From NCBI GenBank assembly GCA_963806175.1, contig CAWDXA010000011.1, positions 1,170,782-1,234,781 on the forward strand: a stretch of DNA of 64,000 nucleotides, in the 5' to 3' direction. Position numbers and translations under genes: made by a program. A model generated the notes under the pieces. It worked only from the letters and a program-made list of their open reading frames with translations, searched no databases and was not told where the DNA came from. Origin of the DNA: an uncultured Chloroflexia bacterium (GTDB lineage: Bacteria > Chloroflexota > Limnocylindria > Limnocylindrales > CSP1-4). Shown piece after piece: positions 39,441-54,740 of this stretch. Positions within the stretch are counted from its first letter, which is position 1, and each line of letters begins with the position of its first letter.

Positions 39441-41675
39441 TCAATGGCGGAAGTGGCGGACGCCCGTGCAGACCATGGCCGCTCCGGCAGCATCGGCGGC
39501 GGCGATCGCGTCCGCATCGTGCATGGATCCGCCGGGCTGGACGAAGGCGCTGACCCCGGCCCGCAGGCAGACCTCGACCGCGTCCGGGAACGGGTAGAAG
39601 GCGTCCGACGCGCACGAGGCGCCCCGGAGCGCCGCCTCGCCGGCGTACGCGCGTGCCTTCTCGACGGCACCACGGGCCGCGTCGACGCGTGACGTCTGGC
39701 CCGAGCCCATCCCGATCAGCCGGCCGTCCTTGACCAGCACGATCGCGTTCGAGCCGACGCCGCGGACCAGTCGCCAGGCGAGATCGAGATCGCGCTGCTC
39801 GGCGGCCGTCGGCGCGCGGCGGGAGGCGACGGTCCAGGTCGCCGGGTCGTCCCGGGCGGTGTCCGGCATCGTCACCAGGACCGCCCCGCCCGCCGAGCGG
39901 ACGGATCCGCGGGGGTCGGGTGGCGAACCCGGCCCGTCGCGGCCCAGGTCCGGGTCGACGACCAGCCGGAGGTTGGGCTTGCGGGCCAGGATCCTGCGCG
40001 CGGCTTCGTCGAACCCCGGTGCCACGACGACCTCGAGGAAGATCGACACGAGTGCCTCGGCCACGGGCTCGTCCACGGGCCCCGTCAGCGCGACCACCCC
40101 GCCGAAGGCCGAGACCGGGTCGCCAGCCAGCGCGGCCTGCCAGGCTTCCAGCAGCGTGGGGCGTTCGGCCGCGCCGCACGGGTTGGTGTGCTTGACGATC
40201 ACGACCGCCGGTCCGCGCATGGCGCGGCCCAGGGCGTCCGCCGCGGAGGCGTCCAGCACGTTGTTGTAGGACAGCGGCTTGCCCTGGAGCGGCGGCTCAC
40301 CGGTCGCGAACGGGCCGTCGGCCGGGCCACTCCCCGGGCGCCTGTAGCGGGCCGCGGGCTGGTGCGGGTTCTCGCCGTAGCGGAGCGACTCGACCTTCTC
40401 GAGCGCGATCGTCAGCCGCTCGGGGTACGGGTCCGTGGCCCCGGGCAGGCCCGGCTCGTCGGGGAGGTCGAGATCCGCGGGCAGGCGCTCCGGGAGGACC
40501 TCGGCGATCCGCGCGTCGTACGCCGCGGTGTGACGGAACGCCTCCACGGCCAGGGCCGCGCGAAGACCCTCGCCGACCCCGCCGTCGCGCTCGATGGCGT
40601 CCAGCACCGCGTCGTAGCGCGCCGGCGAGGTCACGATCGCCACGTTGGCATGGTTCTTGGCCGCTGCGCGGACCATCGACGGCCCGCCGATGTCGATCTC
40701 CTCGACCAGCTCGTCGAAGGTGATCCCGGGTCGCTCGGCGGCGGCGGCGAACGGATAGAGATTGACGACGACGAGCTCGAACGGGGCCATCGCCGCGGCC
40801 GCGAGCTGGCGGCGATGGCCGGCCAGCCGGCGGTCGGCGAGGATCCCGCCGTGGATCCGTGGATGGAGGGTCTTGACCCGGCCGTCCAGCATCTCCGGGA
40901 AGCCGGTCACGGCGGCGACATCGGTCACCGGCGAGCCGGCGTCGCGCAACGCGCGGGCGGTACCGCCGGTCGACACCAGCTCGAAGCCGGCCCGCACGAG
41001 GCCCGCGGCGAACGGCACCAGGCCCGTCTTGTCGGAGACCGACAGCAGGGCGCGGCGCGGCACCGGCACCACCCGATCCGCGCGCTCGGGATCGAGGACG
41101 ACGCGGCGGCCGTCGAGTCCGACGGCGAGCGCGCCCCCCAGCAGCAGTGCCACCGCCCGGGGCAGGAGGCGGTGCTCCACGGCGCGGATCCGGGCGTGGA
41201 GCGTCTCGACGTCGTCGTCCGGCAGGACGGCCACGGCCTCCTGGGACACGATCGGGCCGCCGTCGAGCGTCGCGTCGACGAGGTGGACGGTGCAGCCCGT
41301 GACGGTGACCCCATGGGCCAGCGCGTCGGCAACCGAATGGGCACCGGGGAAGGCGGGCAGCAACGAGGGGTGGGTGTTGAGGATCCGCCCGGCGAACTCG
41401 TCGAGCACCCGCGGGCCGATGATCCGCATGTAGCCGGCCAGCACGACGACGTCGGGCGTCAGGGCCGCCAGCGTCGAGGCGAGCGCTTCGTCGTCGGCGC
41501 CGGGGACCAGCGCCGTCTCGATCCCCTGCTCGGCCGCCCAGTCGAGCGCGGCACAGGCACGATCCGCGAACACGATCTCGATCGCGCCGCCGAGCTCGCC
41601 GCGAGCGGCTGCGGCCGCCAGCGCGCGGAGATTGGAGCCGCCGCCCGACACACCGACGGCGATCCGGCCGGTCAC
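39441..41675 (-). CDS. purH: Fused PurN-PurH (GAR formyltransferase + IMP cyclohydrolase/AICAR formyltransferase)
   Basis: One frame: SGGGSNL, LAGYMRI, NTHPSLLP, HLVD..LDGGPI (PurN), then RALLSVSDKTG, VKTLHP, IDIGGP, RYGENPHQ, KHTNPCG, RHFRH (PurH). Confidence 0.95.
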   Translation of the reverse strand: MTGRIAVGVSGGGSNLRALAAAAARGELGGAIEIVFADRACAALDWAAEQGIETALVPGADDEALASTLAALTPDVVVLAGYMRIIGPRVLDEFAGRILNTHPSLLPAFPGAHSVADALAHGVTVTGCTVHLVDATLDGGPIVSQEAVAVLPDDDVETLHARIRAVEHRLLPRAVALLLGGALAVGLDGRRVVLDPERADRVVPVPRRALLSVSDKTGLVPFAAGLVRAGFELVSTGGTARALRDAGSPVTDVAAVTGFPEMLDGRVKTLHPRIHGGILADRRLAGHRRQLAAAAMAPFELVVVNLYPFAAAAERPGITFDELVEEIDIGGPSMVRAAAKNHANVAIVTSPARYDAVLDAIERDGGVGEGLRAALAVEAFRHTAAYDARIAEVLPERLPADLDLPDEPGLPGATDPYPERLTIALEKVESLRYGENPHQPAARYRRPGSGPADGPFATGEPPLQGKPLSYNNVLDASAADALGRAMRGPAVVIVKHTNPCGAAERPTLLEAWQAALAGDPVSAFGGVVALTGPVDEPVAEALVSIFLEVVVAPGFDEAARRILARKPNLRLVVDPDLGRDGPGSPPDPRGSVRSAGGAVLVTMPDTARDDPATWTVASRRAPTAAEQRDLDLAWRLVRGVGSNAIVLVKDGRLIGMGSGQTSRVDAARGAVEKARAYAGEAALRGASCASDAFYPFPDAVEVCLRAGVSAFVQPGGSMHDADAIAAADAAGAAMVCTGVRHFRH

Positions 41676-42811
41676 GCCGTCGCCTCGAGTGGCGACTCGA
41701 CGTAGCGTGCTCCGCCCAGGCGTTCGGTCTCGACGACCTCGCCGATGTACGAGGCCTGGATGGTGTGCGCCGCGAACCCGGCGACGGCTGCCGGGACGGC
41801 GTCCGGCGGCACGACCGCGATCATCCCGATCCCGCCATTGAACGTGGCCCGCACCTCCTCGTCGTCCATCCCGCCCAGCGCCCCGACCAGGCGCATGACC
41901 GACGGCATCGCCCACCGGGCGGGGTCGACGCGCGCACCGAGACCGTCGGGCAGGGCGCGCGGCACGTTCCCGGGCAGACCGCCGCCGGTGATGTGGGCGA
42001 GACCGCGGAGGTCCCAGCCGCGCCCGCGCAGCGCTTCCCGGACCCGGAGCAGCGCCCGGGCGTAGATCCGGGTCGGGGTCAGAAGAGTCTCGCCGACGGT
42101 CGCCATGGTCTCGTGCGGTGCCAGGGCCAGCGCCCGGTCCGTGGCCGCGTCCCCGAGCGTCCGGCGGAGGCGGGCCTGGTACGGCTCGGCCAGGCTCAGC
42201 TCCCATTCGGACACGAGCGAGCGAACGAGCGAGAAGCCGTTGGCGTGAAGCCCCGACGACGCCAGGCCGACGATGGCGTCGCCGGGCCGCACGGCCGACC
42301 CGTCGATCATGCATGTGCGCTCGACCACCCCGATCGCGGCACCGGCCAGGTCGAAGGCGTCGGCCGGCATCAGGCCCGGGTGCTCGGCCGTCTCGCCGCC
42401 GACGAGCGCGCAGCCCGCCTCGCGGCAACCGGCCGCCACGCCGCGCACCAGCTCGGCGACCGCCGCCGGGTCGAGCTCGCCGACGGCGACGTAGTCGAGG
42501 AAGGCCAGGGGCTCGGCGCCGGTGCAGGCGATGTCGTCGACGCACATCGCCACGAGGTCGATCCCGATCGTGTCGAACCGCCCAACGGCCGTGGCGATGG
42601 CCGTCTTGGTCCCGACGCCGTCGGTCGAGGCCACGAGCACGGGCTCGCGATAGCCGGCCGGCAGGGTGAACGCCCCGCCGAACCCGCCGAGCCCGCCGAG
42701 GACCTCCACGCGCCGCGTCGACTCCACGTGGGCCCGGATGAGGTCGACCGCGCGCGACCCGGCATCGACGTCGACGCCGGCGGCGCGGTACGCACGGCGC
42801 GCGTCAGCCAT
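41672..42811 (-). CDS. purM: AIR synthetase
   Basis: STDGVGTK; GGETAEHPG; SSGLHANG; AHITGGG; TFNGGIG. Confidence 0.97.
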   Translation of the reverse strand: MADARRAYRAAGVDVDAGSRAVDLIRAHVESTRRVEVLGGLGGFGGAFTLPAGYREPVLVASTDGVGTKTAIATAVGRFDTIGIDLVAMCVDDIACTGAEPLAFLDYVAVGELDPAAVAELVRGVAAGCREAGCALVGGETAEHPGLMPADAFDLAGAAIGVVERTCMIDGSAVRPGDAIVGLASSGLHANGFSLVRSLVSEWELSLAEPYQARLRRTLGDAATDRALALAPHETMATVGETLLTPTRIYARALLRVREALRGRGWDLRGLAHITGGGLPGNVPRALPDGLGARVDPARWAMPSVMRLVGALGGMDDEEVRATFNGGIGMIAVVPPDAVPAAVAGFAAHTIQASYIGEVVETERLGGARYVESPLEATA

Positions 42812-50051: not shown

Positions 50052-51386
50052 TCACCGGCCCGCGACCGGGGCGAGTGCGGACGACCCGATGTCGCGCCGA
50101 TAGTGCAGGCCCGGCGCCCGGATGACCTCCGCGGCCGCCATCGCGGCGGCGCCCGCCGCGGGCAGGTCCGCCGCCCGACCCACCACGGACAGGACCCGCC
50201 CACCGGCGGTCCGCACGGTCCCGTCGGGATCCACCGACGTCCCGGCATGAAAGACGAGCGTCCCGTGCGCCGCGGCCTCGTCGAGCCCGTCGATCCGGTC
50301 GCCGGGGCGGGGGCTTCCGGGGTAGCCGGCCGCCGCGAGCACGATCGCCACCGTGGCCCCGGGCAGCGCCGGCAGCCGACCGCCGGAGAGGATCGAGGCG
50401 GGCACCTGCCCGCGCAGATCTCCGCGCGCCGCGGCGAGGAGGATCGGGCCCAGCGGCATCGCCAGGCGCGGCAGGATGGCCTGCGTCTCCGGATCCCCGA
50501 ACCTTGCGTTGCACTCGAGCAGGACCGGGCCGTCCGGGGTGAGCATGAGCCCCGCGTAGAGCGCGCCGCGGAAGGGCGTCCCGCGACGGGCCAGCTCGGC
50601 CAGGATCGGCCGGTGGAAGGCGTCGAGCAGCGATCCGATCCGGTCGTCCGGGAGGTCCGGCAATGGGCTGTAGGCGCCCATGCCGCCGGTGTTGGGCCCG
50701 GTATCGCCGTCGGCGAGGCGCTTGTGGTCGCGCGACAGCGGCAGCGCCAGCGCGTCGCGCCCATCGCAGACCGCGATCAGGCTTGCCTCCGGACCGGACA
50801 GTCGCTCCTCGATGACGATGGTGCCGGCCGGCTCGGCCGCGAAGAACTGGTCGATCGACGCCTCCGCCTCGGCCAGTGAGTCGCAGACGGTCACGCCCTT
50901 CCCGGCGGCAAGCCCGTCGGCCTTGACGACCACGCCCCGGTTCGCGGCGGCGAGTTCGGCGGCGAACCGGTGGGCGCCGTCGGCAGCCCGGAACGCCGCG
51001 GCACGCGCCATCGGCACGCTGGCGGCGGCCGCAACCTCGTGGCAGAAGGCCTTGCTCGACTCGATCCTGGCGGCCGCCCGCGACGGTCCGAACACGGCGA
51101 TCCCGGCGTCGCGCAGGGCGTCGCTCACCCCGGCGGCCAGCACGGCCTCGGGCCCGATGACCACGAGCTCGACCGTCGCGCGTCGCGCCACGTCAACCAC
51201 CGCTGCCGGATCGAGCGGGTCGACGGCGGGGACGCACCGAACGCGCGGCTCGCGTGCGATCGCGTCGCTGCCGGGCGCCACGATGACCTCGTTGCCGCCC
51301 GGCTCGGCGGCAAGCTTCCAGGCCAGCGCGTGCTCGCGGCCGCCGCTCCCCACGATCAGCGTCCGGGTCGGGGCGATCGGGGTCAT
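50052..51386 (-). CDS. purD: Phosphoribosylamine--glycine ligase
   Basis: GSGGREHAL; KADGLAAGKGV; GPNTGGMGAY; RFGDPE. Confidence 0.97.
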   Translation of the reverse strand: MTPIAPTRTLIVGSGGREHALAWKLAAEPGGNEVIVAPGSDAIAREPRVRCVPAVDPLDPAAVVDVARRATVELVVIGPEAVLAAGVSDALRDAGIAVFGPSRAAARIESSKAFCHEVAAAASVPMARAAAFRAADGAHRFAAELAAANRGVVVKADGLAAGKGVTVCDSLAEAEASIDQFFAAEPAGTIVIEERLSGPEASLIAVCDGRDALALPLSRDHKRLADGDTGPNTGGMGAYSPLPDLPDDRIGSLLDAFHRPILAELARRGTPFRGALYAGLMLTPDGPVLLECNARFGDPETQAILPRLAMPLGPILLAAARGDLRGQVPASILSGGRLPALPGATVAIVLAAAGYPGSPRPGDRIDGLDEAAAHGTLVFHAGTSVDPDGTVRTAGGRVLSVVGRAADLPAAGAAAMAAAEVIRAPGLHYRRDIGSSALAPVAGR

Positions 51387-52690
51387 GCCGGCAGCCCCGG
51401 GCGGCGGCGCATCGGGCGCCAGGCCCGCTCGATCGTCTGGGTCCGCTCTGGACCGACCGACACGAAGATGATCGGCACGCCAGCGTGCTCCTCGATCGCG
51501 CTCACGTAGCGCCGCGCGTTCTCCGGGAGGTCGCCCAGCGAGCGGACGTCGTGGATCGGTTCGGCCCAGCCGGGGAACTCCTCGTAGATGGGGGTCACCC
51601 GCGACAGCGACGCACCGCTCGACGGCCACGTCTCGACCCGCTCGCCGTCCATCGAGTAGGCGACGCACAGCCGGATCGTCTCAATGCCCGACAGGATGTC
51701 GAGCTTGTTGAGGGTGATGGAGCTGACGCTGTTCACGGCCACCGCGTAGCGAAGCGGGACGGCGTCGAACCAGCCGACCCGCCGCGGCCGGCCGGTCACC
51801 GTTCCGTACTCGTTCCCGCGCTTCGCGATCCCGGCCCCGATCTCGTCGAGCAGCTCGGTCGGATACGGACCGGATCCCACCCGGGTCGAGTACGCCTTGA
51901 CGACACCGATCACCTCGTCGACCTGGAGCGGGCCGATCCCGCCGCCCGTGCAGGCGCCGCCGGCGACCGGGTTCGACGAGGTCACATACGGGTAGCTGCC
52001 GTGGTCGAGGTCGAGGAGCGTCCCCTGGGCGCCTTCGAGCAGGACATGCTCGCCGCGGGACAGCGCCCCCTGCACGAGCCACGTCGTGTCGTCGAGGTGC
52101 TCGCGCAGGCGATGGCCCCAGCCGAGGGCCAGGGCCACCAGCGGCTCGAGCTCGAATCGGGCGCCGCCCATCGACCCGAGCAGGAGGTTCTTGTCCGGCA
52201 GGACCCGCGCGAGTCGCTCGCGGATGACGTCCGGGTCGAGCAGGTCCTCCATGCGCAGCCCGAGTCGCCAGGCTCGATCGCCGTAGGCCGGCCCGATCCC
52301 CCGGCCCGTCGTGCCGACCCTGGCCTCCGCCAGCCGGGCCTCGTTCCCGAGGTCGAGCGCGACGTGGTACGGCATGATCACGTGAGCGCTCCGGCTGACC
52401 CGCACCCTGGCCACGTCGATGCCGCGCGAGGCGAGCATGTCGAGCTCGTCGATCAGGGTCTGCGGGTTGACGACCACGCCGTTGCCGATCACCGACGTGA
52501 TGTGCGGGTAGAGGACCCCCGACGGCGTCAACCGGAGCTTGAAGACCTCGTCGCCCTTGACGACCGTATGGCCGGCGTTGTCGCCGCCCTGGTAGCGGAC
52601 GACCATCGCGACCTGCTCGGCAAGGAAGTCGGTCATCTTGCCCTTGCCCTCGTCGCCCCACTGCAACCCGACGATCACGGTCGCGGGCAT
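51383..52690 (-). CDS. purA: Adenylosuccinate synthetase
   Basis: QWGDEGKGK; NAGHT; GTTGRGIGP; EGAQG; YPYVTSS; TGRPRRVGW. Confidence 0.98.
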   Translation of the reverse strand: MPATVIVGLQWGDEGKGKMTDFLAEQVAMVVRYQGGDNAGHTVVKGDEVFKLRLTPSGVLYPHITSVIGNGVVVNPQTLIDELDMLASRGIDVARVRVSRSAHVIMPYHVALDLGNEARLAEARVGTTGRGIGPAYGDRAWRLGLRMEDLLDPDVIRERLARVLPDKNLLLGSMGGARFELEPLVALALGWGHRLREHLDDTTWLVQGALSRGEHVLLEGAQGTLLDLDHGSYPYVTSSNPVAGGACTGGGIGPLQVDEVIGVVKAYSTRVGSGPYPTELLDEIGAGIAKRGNEYGTVTGRPRRVGWFDAVPLRYAVAVNSVSSITLNKLDILSGIETIRLCVAYSMDGERVETWPSSGASLSRVTPIYEEFPGWAEPIHDVRSLGDLPENARRYVSAIEEHAGVPIIFVSVGPERTQTIERAWRPMRRRPGLPA

Positions 52691-52722
52691 CAGGGCCGCC
52701 CCGGATCGATGCGCCACCAATG

Positions 52723-52753
52723 AAAAAGGTCCCTCCCGCAAGGGAATGGGACC
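52723..52753 (-). terminator. Intrinsic terminator inside the purA leader (attenuator)
   Basis: Minus strand GGTCCC-ATTCCC-TTGC-GGGA-GGGACC-TTTTT, 32 nt before the purA ATG. Confidence 0.85.
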
Positions 52754-52903
52754 CGGATAGAGCTCTCCCGCGTCGCACTGCCGGCGCTCCGGCGGATCAT
52801 CGTGGTCCGGTCGCTCGGGCGCCTCACGGGACGACCGATGCGCCTTGCAAGCGCGATCGCTGACCTCCTGGTACGCGGGCCCCGGCCCGCCTGCTCTGAG
52901 GAG
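52723..52903 (-). ncRNA. Candidate riboswitch/attenuator leader of the pur operon (class unassigned)
   Basis: About 180 nt of multi-stem sequence between an extended -10 and a terminator, upstream of ten purine genes. Confidence 0.6.
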
Positions 52904-52908
52904 GCTGG

Positions 52909-52917
52909 AGTATAGCA
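52909..52917 (-). promoter_or_regulatory. Extended -10 promoter of the pur operon
   Basis: TGcTATACT on the minus strand. Confidence 0.7.
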
Positions 52918-53024
52918 GGGCGACTTCGCCGGAACCGCGGCCGGCGGGCGCGGTACGACCGGCGCCGGGGGGTCAGTACCTTCAGGCGAGCCGGGCAGGG
53001 ACCGTCCCCGACTAGCCTTGGCAG

Positions 53025-54740
53025 GTGATGCGCCTCCTCCGTTTCCTGGCGCTCGCGGTTCCGGTCGCGCTCGGGATCCTGCTGTTGGGCCAGCCGACCG
53101 CATTCTCGTGGCTCGGCGACAGCGAGCGCTCCGTCGTCGCCGCGCTCGCGGCGGCCACGATCGGCGTGTACCTGACCGTTGGCGTGCTCGAGCTGCGGAC
53201 CAATTTGCGCCTGCGCCGGCTGGTCAAGGCGGCCGAGAGGATCGCCGCGGGTGACTACACGGTCGAAGTGTCGAAGTACGGGAGCACCCGTCTCGAGGCG
53301 CGCATGGCGAACGCCATCAACCGGATCTCGGCAGCGCTCGCGGACACCTACGACCGGGCGACGATCGATCGGCTGACCGGCGTCTTCAATCGGCAGGCCC
53401 TCCTGGCCGAGCTGTTCGCCGAAGTGGAGCGGGCGGCACGCTACGATCGGCCCCTGTCGGTGGCGTTCGTCGACATCGACCACTTCAAGGTCGTCAACGA
53501 CACCCACGGCCACGGCGCCGGCGACATCGTCCTCCGCGGCGTCGCCCAGGTCCTTGCCGCCAACCTGCGTGCCAGCGACCTGCTCGGTCGGTATGGCGGC
53601 GAGGAATTCATGCTGATCCTGACCGAGACCCCGGTCGAGGAAGGCGCCGTCCTGGCCGAGAAGCTTCGCTCGCTCGTCGAACGAGAACGGTTCGTCACCG
53701 ACGCGGGGCAGAGCCTGTCGGTCACGATCTCGATCGGGATCGTCGGCGGGTTCGGCGGGCAATTGCGAATGGAAGCCCTGGTCCGCGACGCGGACGCCGC
53801 GATGTACTCAGCCAAGTCGCTCGGACGGAACCAGATCTATGTCTTCGCCGAGCCAAACGACGACTCGCGCGTCCCCAGGGCGCCAATCTCGGCGATCGGG
53901 CGGGCCCGGGCCGTCGACATCGGGCGACGCGCGCGCGAGGCGGCGACCGCTGCCCTGCTCGACGTCGTCATTTCCCTTCCACAGTACCGGGGGCGCCCGT
54001 CCGCGGTCATCACGACCATCGTCGATTCGATGGCCCGTTCGCTCCAACTGCCCGACGCCGAGGTCGAACGGATCCGCATCGCGGCCCTGCTGCACGACAT
54101 CGGCAAGCTCGCGCTCCCCGAGGAGGTTCTGGACAAGCATTCGCCGCTCACGTCGGCGGAGTGGCGGAGCGTCGTCCAGCATCCCCGCATCGGCCAGGTC
54201 ATCCTCGAGCAGGCGGCCGCGCTCAAGGATGCCATCCCGATCATCCTGCACCATCACGAGCGGTTCGCCGGCCACGGCTACCCGTATGGGTTGCGGGCCA
54301 CCGACATCCCGCTGGGAGCGCGGATCGTGGCGATCGCCGACGCCTACGACGCCATGGTCAACGACCGGCCGTACAAGCCCGCACTGAGCCACCAGGCCGC
54401 CCTCGACGAGCTGCGCCTCCACTCCGGCACGCAGTTCGATCCCGAGCTCGTCACCCTGTTCTGCGAGCTGTTCGCGACGGCCCCGCCGGCACCCGATCCG
54501 GCGATGCTGGCGCGGGGCATGGCCGTGACCGAGACTGCCGATCGGCGGGTGAGGACGCACGCGGCGACGGCCGACGACCACCGGCGACGCGCGACACGAC
54601 GCGCCCAACCCGGTCCGCGGCCGATGGCACCCGCGGGGGACGGGACCATGGAGCCCGGACGCCGGCCAGCGGCCGAGCGCGCCGGCCTGAAGCGACCGGC
54701 CGACCCCGACAGCCGCGGTCGCGGTCGCGCCGCCGGCTGA
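53025..54740 (+). CDS. Membrane HAMP-GGDEF-HD-GYP hybrid protein
   Basis: Two TMs; HAMP; DRLTGVFN; RASD..RYGGEEF; LLHDIGK; HHERFAGHGYP; IADAYDAM. Confidence 0.93.
   Translation: MMRLLRFLALAVPVALGILLLGQPTAFSWLGDSERSVVAALAAATIGVYLTVGVLELRTNLRLRRLVKAAERIAAGDYTVEVSKYGSTRLEARMANAINRISAALADTYDRATIDRLTGVFNRQALLAELFAEVERAARYDRPLSVAFVDIDHFKVVNDTHGHGAGDIVLRGVAQVLAANLRASDLLGRYGGEEFMLILTETPVEEGAVLAEKLRSLVERERFVTDAGQSLSVTISIGIVGGFGGQLRMEALVRDADAAMYSAKSLGRNQIYVFAEPNDDSRVPRAPISAIGRARAVDIGRRAREAATAALLDVVISLPQYRGRPSAVITTIVDSMARSLQLPDAEVERIRIAALLHDIGKLALPEEVLDKHSPLTSAEWRSVVQHPRIGQVILEQAAALKDAIPIILHHHERFAGHGYPYGLRATDIPLGARIVAIADAYDAMVNDRPYKPALSHQAALDELRLHSGTQFDPELVTLFCELFATAPPAPDPAMLARGMAVTETADRRVRTHAATADDHRRRATRRAQPGPRPMAPAGDGTMEPGRRPAAERAGLKRPADPDSRGRGRAAG

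Follow-up and report, generated by a model that had tools for sequence, protein, structure and literature searches.

A leader of about 200 nucleotides (nt), restricted, within the genomes sampled, to a single family of uncultured Chloroflexota, precedes the purine operon headed by purA in a 64,000-nt stretch of DNA from an uncultured Chloroflexia bacterium (GenBank assembly GCA_963806175.1, contig CAWDXA010000011.1, positions 1,170,782 to 1,234,781; hereafter the window). All coordinates below are positions in this 64-kb window, and both the leader and the purA operon lie on its minus strand. The leader is conserved, contains two covarying hairpins (H3 and H4) and a covarying intrinsic terminator that recur among relatives, and carries an open reading frame that passes through the conserved core and the terminator and ends at the start codon of purA. 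This frame was missed in a preliminary description of the region, which had read the leader as a candidate purine-pathway riboswitch. Since the core and the terminator both lie inside a frame that is kept open as far as the purA start, the ribosome is the effector to which the arrangement points. On balance, the leader is probably an attenuator of the kind known from the pyrBI operon, in which translation of the leader would suppress termination and would be coupled to the translation of purA. The features on which this reading depends are the following.

52864..52869, minus strand: AGGAGG, the predicted ribosome-binding site of the leader frame; all 28 genus sequences have GGAGG unchanged.
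52855..52857, minus strand: AUC, the presumed weak start codon; invariant in the genus.
52690..52857, minus strand: leader reading frame of 55 codons and a stop; its UGA (52692-52690) overlaps the purA AUG (52690-52688), and the frame spans H3, H4 and the terminator.
52836..52859, minus strand: hairpin H2, CGAU-C-GCGC / GCGCAUCG, which contains the AUC; 98.8% paired in the genus and invariant there.
52844-52830 with 52823-52809, minus strand: hairpin H3, 13 pairs with the loop CCGUGA; 97.7% paired in the genus, where changes are wobble-compatible only.
52824..52827, minus strand: GUGA in the H3 loop; where a relative has its first start in the +1 frame, it would provide a UGA stop and a GUG restart.
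52775..52798, minus strand: variable hairpin H4, core GCCGG-AGCG-CCGGC; six of ten pairs change on both sides in the genus.
52755..52770, minus strand: CGGGAG (52770-52765) and UCUAUCC (52761-52755), nearly invariant columns.
52723..52754, minus strand: intrinsic terminator from a terminator scan, a hairpin (52754-52728) followed by a U5 tract (52727-52723), inside the leader frame.

Within the genus, the stop of the frame overlaps the purA start in all 29 loci that include purA, as TGATG, as TAATG or, where the start codon is GTG, as TAGTG. Between the invariant ATC and this stop lie 129 to 324 nt, a distance divisible by three in all but one of 28 sequences; the frame read from the ATC is open in 26 of the 28. 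For the wider family, frames were counted from the model column that holds the GUG of CCCGUGAGG; once identical leaders had been dropped, 145 rows were left, of which 141 included purA. Relative to the purA start, the frame stop was found at -2 in 106 leaders, at -4 in 10, at -3 in three, at -6 in one and at -10 in two; in nine more it was found at +13, a TGA inside purA that belongs to the same frame class as -2. Altogether, the frame ends no more than 13 nt from the purA start in 131 of the 141 leaders, and in 106 the stop overlaps the start as UGAUG, UAGUG or UAAUG. The identity of the overlapping stop varies (TGA 105, TAA 8 and TAG 5), with TAG accompanying GTG starts.

The distances from the GUG to purA fell into the three residue classes as 116, 19 and 6 of the 141 leaders, representing 45, 14 and 6 different lengths, respectively. 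Stop codons were about ten times rarer in the leader frame (7 in 8015 codons) than in the other two frames (70 in 7996 and 61 in 7880). The same held in the unconserved 3' part past the core, with five stops in the leader frame versus 33 and 28. After the GUG position the frame is 34 to 139 codons long. In some species a conserved insert of about 100 nt, a dispersed repeat, stands between the terminator and purA (locus L002, positions 1325-1500 on the minus strand, and at the corresponding position in L004, L008-L010, L018, L021-L024, L028 and L030). Five genomes were searched for this repeat, and each gave 5 to 10 matches; the window's own genome has five of them elsewhere, and none in the leader. 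The leader frame stays open across the repeat.

A ribosome-binding core of GGAG, GAGG or AGGA was found before purA in just 66 of the 141 leaders, the Shine-Dalgarno (SD) sequence being weak or absent in the other 75. This weakness, along with the overlap of stop and start in 106 leaders, is also what would be expected if there were no metabolite control at all and the frame served to deliver ribosomes to purA by termination-reinitiation, with the terminator as a constitutive brake tied to general translation capacity. Excerpts of one paper propose such a general reinitiation role for leader genes (PMC4833913). That account, however, gives little reason for so long, strongly conserved and structured a core or for the conservation of weak start codons, and the position before a whole biosynthetic operon suggests feedback control; we consider delivery of ribosomes as the sole function to be quite improbable.

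The evidence on the start of the frame is consistent with translation. GGAGG lies 6 or 7 nt before the AUC in 96 of the 99 sequences of the window's type, and no ATG, GTG or TTG is conserved in leaders of this type. One-base insertions between GGAGG and AUC occur in six genomes; these break the upstream frames, and the frame is therefore not kept upstream of AUC. Past the AUC, the variable six-base loop between AUC and GUG contains 0, 8 and 10 stops in frames 0, +1 and +2, respectively (98 sequences with nine loop variants). In other genera the place of AUC is taken by UUG, one base further on in the +1 frame and 5 to 8 nt after GGAG. This UUG opens a mini-frame of 10 codons whose stop, the UGA of CCGUGAGG, shares bases with the GUG that belongs to the long frame. 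A third group has lost one base, which shifts the AUC itself into the +1 frame. GUGA was kept in all 39 leaders with a +1-frame start (32 UUG and 7 AUC), and was present in 87 and lost in 12 of the 99 leaders with a frame-0 AUC. In these counts, uncorrected for relatedness, a link of this kind between the frame of the first start and the putative restart site is what translation would predict.

The DNA is about 70% G+C, a composition at which single-sequence tests are uninformative, and the fold energy of the window's leader equals that of shuffles (z = 0.04). The register of H3 was proposed by RNAalifold. In 75 sequences from the wider family, H3 was 90.4% paired and seven of its 13 pairs changed on both sides (44 cells), a value reached by none of 500 shuffles. 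One H3 pair was GC in 22 sequences, UG in 11, AU in 9, UA in 9, GU in 5 and CG in 1. Pairing was 93.9% in 92 further sequences, in an alignment fitted to the model. H2 was 86.5% paired in the 75 wider sequences, with one pair changed from G-C to U-G in seven and unpaired in 23 (the UUG type); inspection by eye indicated that the C-to-G change in H2 was also answered by a G-to-U change on the H3 side in five sequences. H2 and H3 are mutually exclusive because both use GGCGCAUCGG. H4 was missing in three of 30 sequences, through a deletion of 24 nt, which is a multiple of three. H3 and H4 are covarying structure upstream of the regulated gene; covariation in the purA leaders of relatives was one of the checks that the preliminary description had named. 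Separately, the palindrome GCGATCGC was considered as a genome-wide motif and rejected, with 20 occurrences in the window versus 12.2 expected and 4 of 100 shuffles reaching 20.

A hairpin of -9 kcal/mol or lower followed directly by a T run was found in 125 of the 141 leaders, always upstream of the frame's stop. These terminators comprised 124 distinct hairpin sequences with a median of -20.4 kcal/mol and 10 pairs. In most of the remaining 16 leaders a hairpin was present but its U tract was interrupted; two had no hairpin. In the window the U5 tract lies 32 nt before the purA ATG; in one relative it directly adjoins the purA start (distance 1). Conserved CGGGAG(A) and UCUAUCC are found 1 to 16 nt upstream of the terminator hairpin and about 11 nt past the base of H4; they may make polymerase pause, form one strand of an antiterminator or be bound by a factor. 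No long homopolymer tract was found before the terminator.

Upstream of the leader frame, the promoter and the 5' end of the transcript contribute three further features.

52909..52917, minus strand: extended -10 element TGCTATACT; all 28 genus sequences agree at seven of the nine positions.
52899..52904, minus strand: CCUCCU, for which most relatives have UCCUC; its complement is the Shine-Dalgarno-like AGGAGG at 52864-52869.
52875..52890, minus strand: hairpin H1, GCGGGC-CGGG-GCCCGC, from alignments and per-sequence folds; its sequence and length vary among relatives.

The third position of TGCTATACT was C in 26 and G in two of the 28 genus sequences, and the extended -10 was recognizable throughout the family. 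No -35 element was found upstream of the leader, and a sigma-70 scan returned no promoter because the -35 was missing. The transcript is predicted to start near 52902, a few bases past TGCTATACT.

All of the letters quoted in the preliminary description were found on the minus strand: TGCTATACT at 52917-52909, CCUCCU at 52904-52899 and AGGAGG at 52869-52864 on either side of a GC hairpin at 52890-52875, a GCGC hairpin within 52859-52836, a small hairpin at 52793-52779 and the terminator. The extended -10 it had pointed out is the conserved element listed above, its GC stem with U5 tract was recovered by the terminator scan and recurs in relatives, and its small hairpin (H4) is a real structure by the compensatory changes in six of ten pairs. 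Other parts of the proposed fold did not survive the comparison with relatives. The helix CGGUCGU/AGCGACCG was paired in 79% of cells, with two of its seven pairs unpaired in 19 and 24 of the 30 sequences. The GGCGC/GCGCC pseudoknot was paired in 68.9% of cells versus a shuffled mean of 69.0%; one partner hairpin is missing in three of 30 sequences, and a pseudoknot through the H4 loop therefore cannot be essential. No pfl match was found at E-values up to 10 (52600-53100), and with the pseudoknot and one helix failing in relatives the ZTP-like topology is not supported. The preliminary description had also recognized no guanine or PRPP (ykkC) core, and no purine or ykkC riboswitch was matched at the gathering score in the 64-kb window or at E-values up to 10 in 52600-53100. 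As it had suggested might be the case for a new element, no Rfam family was found at the gathering score in the 64-kb window, and none at E-values up to 0.1 in 17 relatives' loci; a permissive scan gave chance-level matches only (BcKCsr2 at E 0.95, sul1 at 6.7 and mgtE at 6.2). What remains of its claim of transcription attenuation is the general form, with a conserved and structured leader, an intrinsic terminator and a pur operon behind them, and not the ZTP-like form. Since the conserved leader ends in a terminator before the operon, premature termination is a reasonable reading.

These results also bear on a riboswitch of another design, in which the core (H2/H3, H4, CGGGAG and UCUAUCC) would be an undescribed aptamer for a purine-pathway metabolite and the terminator its expression platform, with the frame either coupling purA or being gated by the aptamer. 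The anatomy is like that of a riboswitch, in that the structure is conserved and covaries and a terminator stands between it and an operon for biosynthesis; conservation goes beyond the needs of the frame and terminator, no known family is matched, and the mutually exclusive H2 and H3 have GGCGCAUCGG in common. However, ribosomes would unfold an aptamer that lies within a selected open frame. The variable positions are in loops and one internal mismatch and do not surround a conserved multi-helix junction; moreover, H4 is dispensable in three of 30 sequences, the proposed pseudoknot fails and no ligand can be inferred. An aptamer of this kind is in our judgment unlikely.

Regulatory proteins such as PyrR and TRAP control attenuation elsewhere, and an RNA-binding regulator could in the same manner recognize the H3 loop CCGUGA or CGGGAG/UCUAUCC and set termination versus read-through. 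The invariant hairpin loop and the single-stranded motifs, which have no covariation partner, would suit a protein. Against it, no Rfam family, protein-binding leaders included, was matched at E-values up to 10; no candidate regulator gene is linked to the leader in the window, where the neighbor is a GGDEF-HD gene; and the conserved frame would be left unexplained. We hold out little prospect for a protein as the regulator.

The preferred reading, attenuation by translation of the leader, would proceed as follows. Transcription would begin a few bases after TGCTATACT, and the leader RNA would offer GGAGG and a weak start, either AUC or UUG with a stop and restart. A ribosome that loads there and trails RNA polymerase closely would block the terminator hairpin and so allow read-through into the operon; on ending at UGAUG it would be handed over to the purA start. 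With no ribosome trailing, the terminator would form and the operon would be off. Control might be exerted at the choice between H2, in which AUC is buried, and H3, in which AUC is free; at the weak start codon itself; or by a pause of polymerase close to CGGGAG/UCUAUCC. As a guess, purine nucleotide pools might be the signal, through such a pause or through a factor that acts on H2/H3. Two more specific versions can be put forward tentatively, with the chances against them. In one, a purine counterpart of pyrBI would sense ATP or GTP through a race between polymerase, pausing near CGGGAG/UCUAUCC or behind H4, and the ribosome at the weak start, either AUC or UUG with a programmed UGA/GUG restart in a hairpin loop; in the other, a new riboswitch class would gate initiation of the leader frame and hence termination.

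Several observations weigh against translation-dependent attenuation. Ten of the 141 leaders break the frame rule, five through an early stop and five by running on without a stop near the start. The G+C content by codon position was 0.72/0.70/0.75 in the leader frame versus 0.69/0.41/0.94 in purA, i.e., the leader has no skew toward G+C at the third codon position (GC3 skew), and the argument for translation would draw on the open frame and not on codon usage. Initiation at AUC or UUG, termination at the U tract and a transcript start near 52902 are predictions from sequence. An SD-sequestering helix was not established, since in minimum-energy folds of the 5' leader at least three of the four SD bases were paired to the 5' end (5' UCCUC pairing) in 71 of 139 sequences. 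Nor was an antiterminator helix established: UCCCG/CGGGA was 92% paired, and both of its sides are conserved, so that covariation gives no test. Mean column identity of the core was 81% (30 sequences), and the core is conserved beyond what an open frame and a terminator need, which leaves room for a ligand or a protein. The genomes compared are related and not independent, and the counts overstate significance. Excerpts of a study in Escherichia coli put initiation at AUC at about 1-2% of that at AUG (10.1101/063800).

The composition of the frame bears equally on whether it is a small gene that encodes a protein with a separate function. In favor, the frame is open and the genus residues IGRPVRRPSD vary mostly at third codon positions; these variable third-position sites, however, coincide with the mismatch and the loop of H3. 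For the first 111 nt, codon-position entropy was flat (0.55/0.57/0.59), and the substitution pattern alone therefore does not indicate coding. The lack of GC3 skew also speaks against a protein product, as do the length of 34 to 139 codons after GUG and the presence of a terminator hairpin and a dispersed repeat inside the frame. Past the GUG, the two leader types encode different peptides with no conservation between them, and the leader peptide matched no Pfam or NCBIfam family. With no protein-like composition, no conserved peptide and no family, what is conserved is therefore the act of reading and not the product, and we give a functional small protein almost no weight.

The leader is widespread in the genus and in the family. 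The region 52921-52747 was matched by BLAST in 34 of the 36 other genus genomes at 72-86% identity. purA adjoins the leader match in 29 of the 30 fetched genus loci, the 30th ending at a contig end. In a larger set, the leader stands before purA in 107 of 110 loci; the other three are without a purA match, and at least two of those end at a contig end. The leader occurs once per genome, and a single copy is present in the window's own. Across the family, BLAST found the leader in 131 of 401 genomes and 28 of 49 genera, a tally that includes two unpublished genomes (G140 and G410) which no other result uses. An exact-pattern scan returned at least 118 stretches, and among the 80 listed the hosts were, by their record titles, uncultured Chloroflexota, mostly metagenome-assembled genomes of 'Candidatus Limnocylindrales' or 'Limnocylindria'.

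A covariance model (R1) built from the conserved core matched 75 loci in one fetched set of 76 and every locus in another of 100. When whole genomes were sampled, R1 was found in 61 of 108 genomes of the family (f1), in 0 of 42 of the sister family f2, in 0 of 49, 0 of 50 and 0 of 1 in other families of the class, and in 0 of 147 in a sample of the phylum outside f1. Many sampled genomes are incomplete, and these zeros are therefore to be read as not found in those searched, rather than as absent. When four f1 genomes without an R1 match were inspected by eye, three carried a diverged, recognizable copy and the fourth did not; one f2 genome inspected in the same way had no leader copy. In locus L249 (genus g36), a diverged purA leader missed by the covariance model has AUGA in place of GUGA in the hairpin loop, and its first start is UUG. 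This copy escapes the model, and the leader family is therefore wider than the model counts indicate.

Metatranscriptome contigs from four soil and peat RNA libraries included pieces of relatives' leaders corresponding to 52752-52885 in two runs and to 52809-52860 in a third. One of these contigs extends 80 letters beyond 52756 into a different terminator-like hairpin. The bins 52888-52998 were uncovered by such contigs; relatives are unalignable there, which makes the gap uninformative. As contigs, these data show neither ends nor strand, and RNA libraries can contain DNA; they do no more than hint at transcription of such leaders.

Among known systems, the closest likeness is to the pyrBI operon of E. 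coli with its leader gene pyrL. According to excerpts of the literature, the pyrBI terminator lies within a leader peptide gene of 135 bp, and a ribosome close behind polymerase suppresses termination (PMC4824070, PMC5021804); the nucleotide pool alters this coupling through a UTP-sensitive U-rich stretch (PMC3641672). As judged from those same excerpts (PMC4824070, PMC5021804, PMC3641672), the two systems have in common a leader frame, here with a predicted ribosome-binding site, that holds an intrinsic terminator before a nucleotide operon. By analogy, a ribosome trailing polymerase would suppress termination here as well. Unlike pyrBI, the operon in question makes purines instead of pyrimidines, a U-rich pause tract is missing, with the short purine-rich CGGGAG(A) before the terminator as sole candidate for that part, and the start is weak (AUC, or UUG with a stop and restart). 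The leader stop overlaps the start of the first gene, and the hairpins are long, conserved and covarying; further, the leader is known from sequence alone.

The leader of the Salmonella mgtCBR operon, mgtM, is similar in a proposed feature: a purine pool would be read through coupling, with nucleotides and not a peptide conserved. In the excerpted account of mgtM, a conserved, ATP-sensitive adenine stretch acts via transcription-translation coupling (PMC3641672). In contrast to the leader described here, mgtM is short, has this conserved adenine stretch and has no intrinsic terminator, and the mgtCBR operon, for virulence and Mg2+ transport, is switched on by high ATP.

ZTP (pfl), purine and PRPP (ykkC) riboswitches resemble the leader in being structured elements before purine-pathway genes, often with a terminator after them. 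Unlike them, the leader has no covariance-model match, its pseudoknot is unsupported and the element lies in a predicted translated frame. With the attenuators trpL, hisL and pheL it shares a leader frame (here of predicted translation), a terminator and alternative hairpins, and perhaps also a hairpin at which polymerase pauses and so keeps step with the ribosome. The frames of trpL, hisL and pheL, however, stop before the terminator and carry runs of regulatory codons, whereas the frame described here runs through the terminator to purA and has no conserved codon run. The overlap of stop and start at purA, and at GUGA in the UUG type, is like that in termination-reinitiation coupling (UGAUG, AUGA). 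Such coupling usually joins two genes for proteins, whereas the upstream frame of this leader has a non-coding character and extends across a terminator.

The purA gene (adenylosuccinate synthetase; 51383..52690, minus strand) starts with the ATG at 52690-52688 and matches Pfam PF00709 with an E-value of 5.9e-169. The order of the operon is purA-D-B-C-S-Q-L-F-M-N/H. At its far end (39441-42545, minus strand), purN (Formyl_trans_N) and purH (MGS and AICARFT_IMPCHas) domains occur in a single frame with no stop between them, which suggests a PurN-PurH fusion protein.

The leader sits in a divergent intergenic region of 334 nt, on the other side of which the GGDEF-HD gene begins at about 53025-53030 on the plus strand. 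This neighbor (53025-54740, plus strand) encodes a membrane-anchored protein with GGDEF and HD-GYP-like (HD_5) domains, and the start region of the gene is kept beside the leader in many genomes of the genus. Two direct repeats with the consensus CCGG(A/T)GGTACC (52983-52974 and 52960-52951, minus strand) lie upstream of the purA promoter with a spacing of 22-23 nt. They were found in 46 of the 82 loci with at least 130 nt upstream of the -10, at distances of 14 to 89 nt from it. These repeats may be a transcription-factor site for purA or for the divergent GGDEF-HD gene.

Purine operons are known to be controlled by DNA-binding repressors and by guanine, ZTP and PRPP riboswitches. A literature search, with subscription journals and bioRxiv supplements outside its scope, found no description of this leader, no translated attenuator of a purine operon and no paper joining 'Limnocylindria' with 'riboswitch'. 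The present work yields a covariance model and about 140 sequences for use in experiments. If the preferred reading is true, leaders in GC-rich genomes that look like riboswitches would need to be checked for conservation of a reading frame before being called aptamers. The leader would also be a natural case of a conserved non-AUG start combined with a stop-restart site displayed in a hairpin loop. Finally, it would establish an independent origin, for purines and in a deep lineage of uncultured soil bacteria, of the ribosome-dependent anti-termination known from pyrBI.

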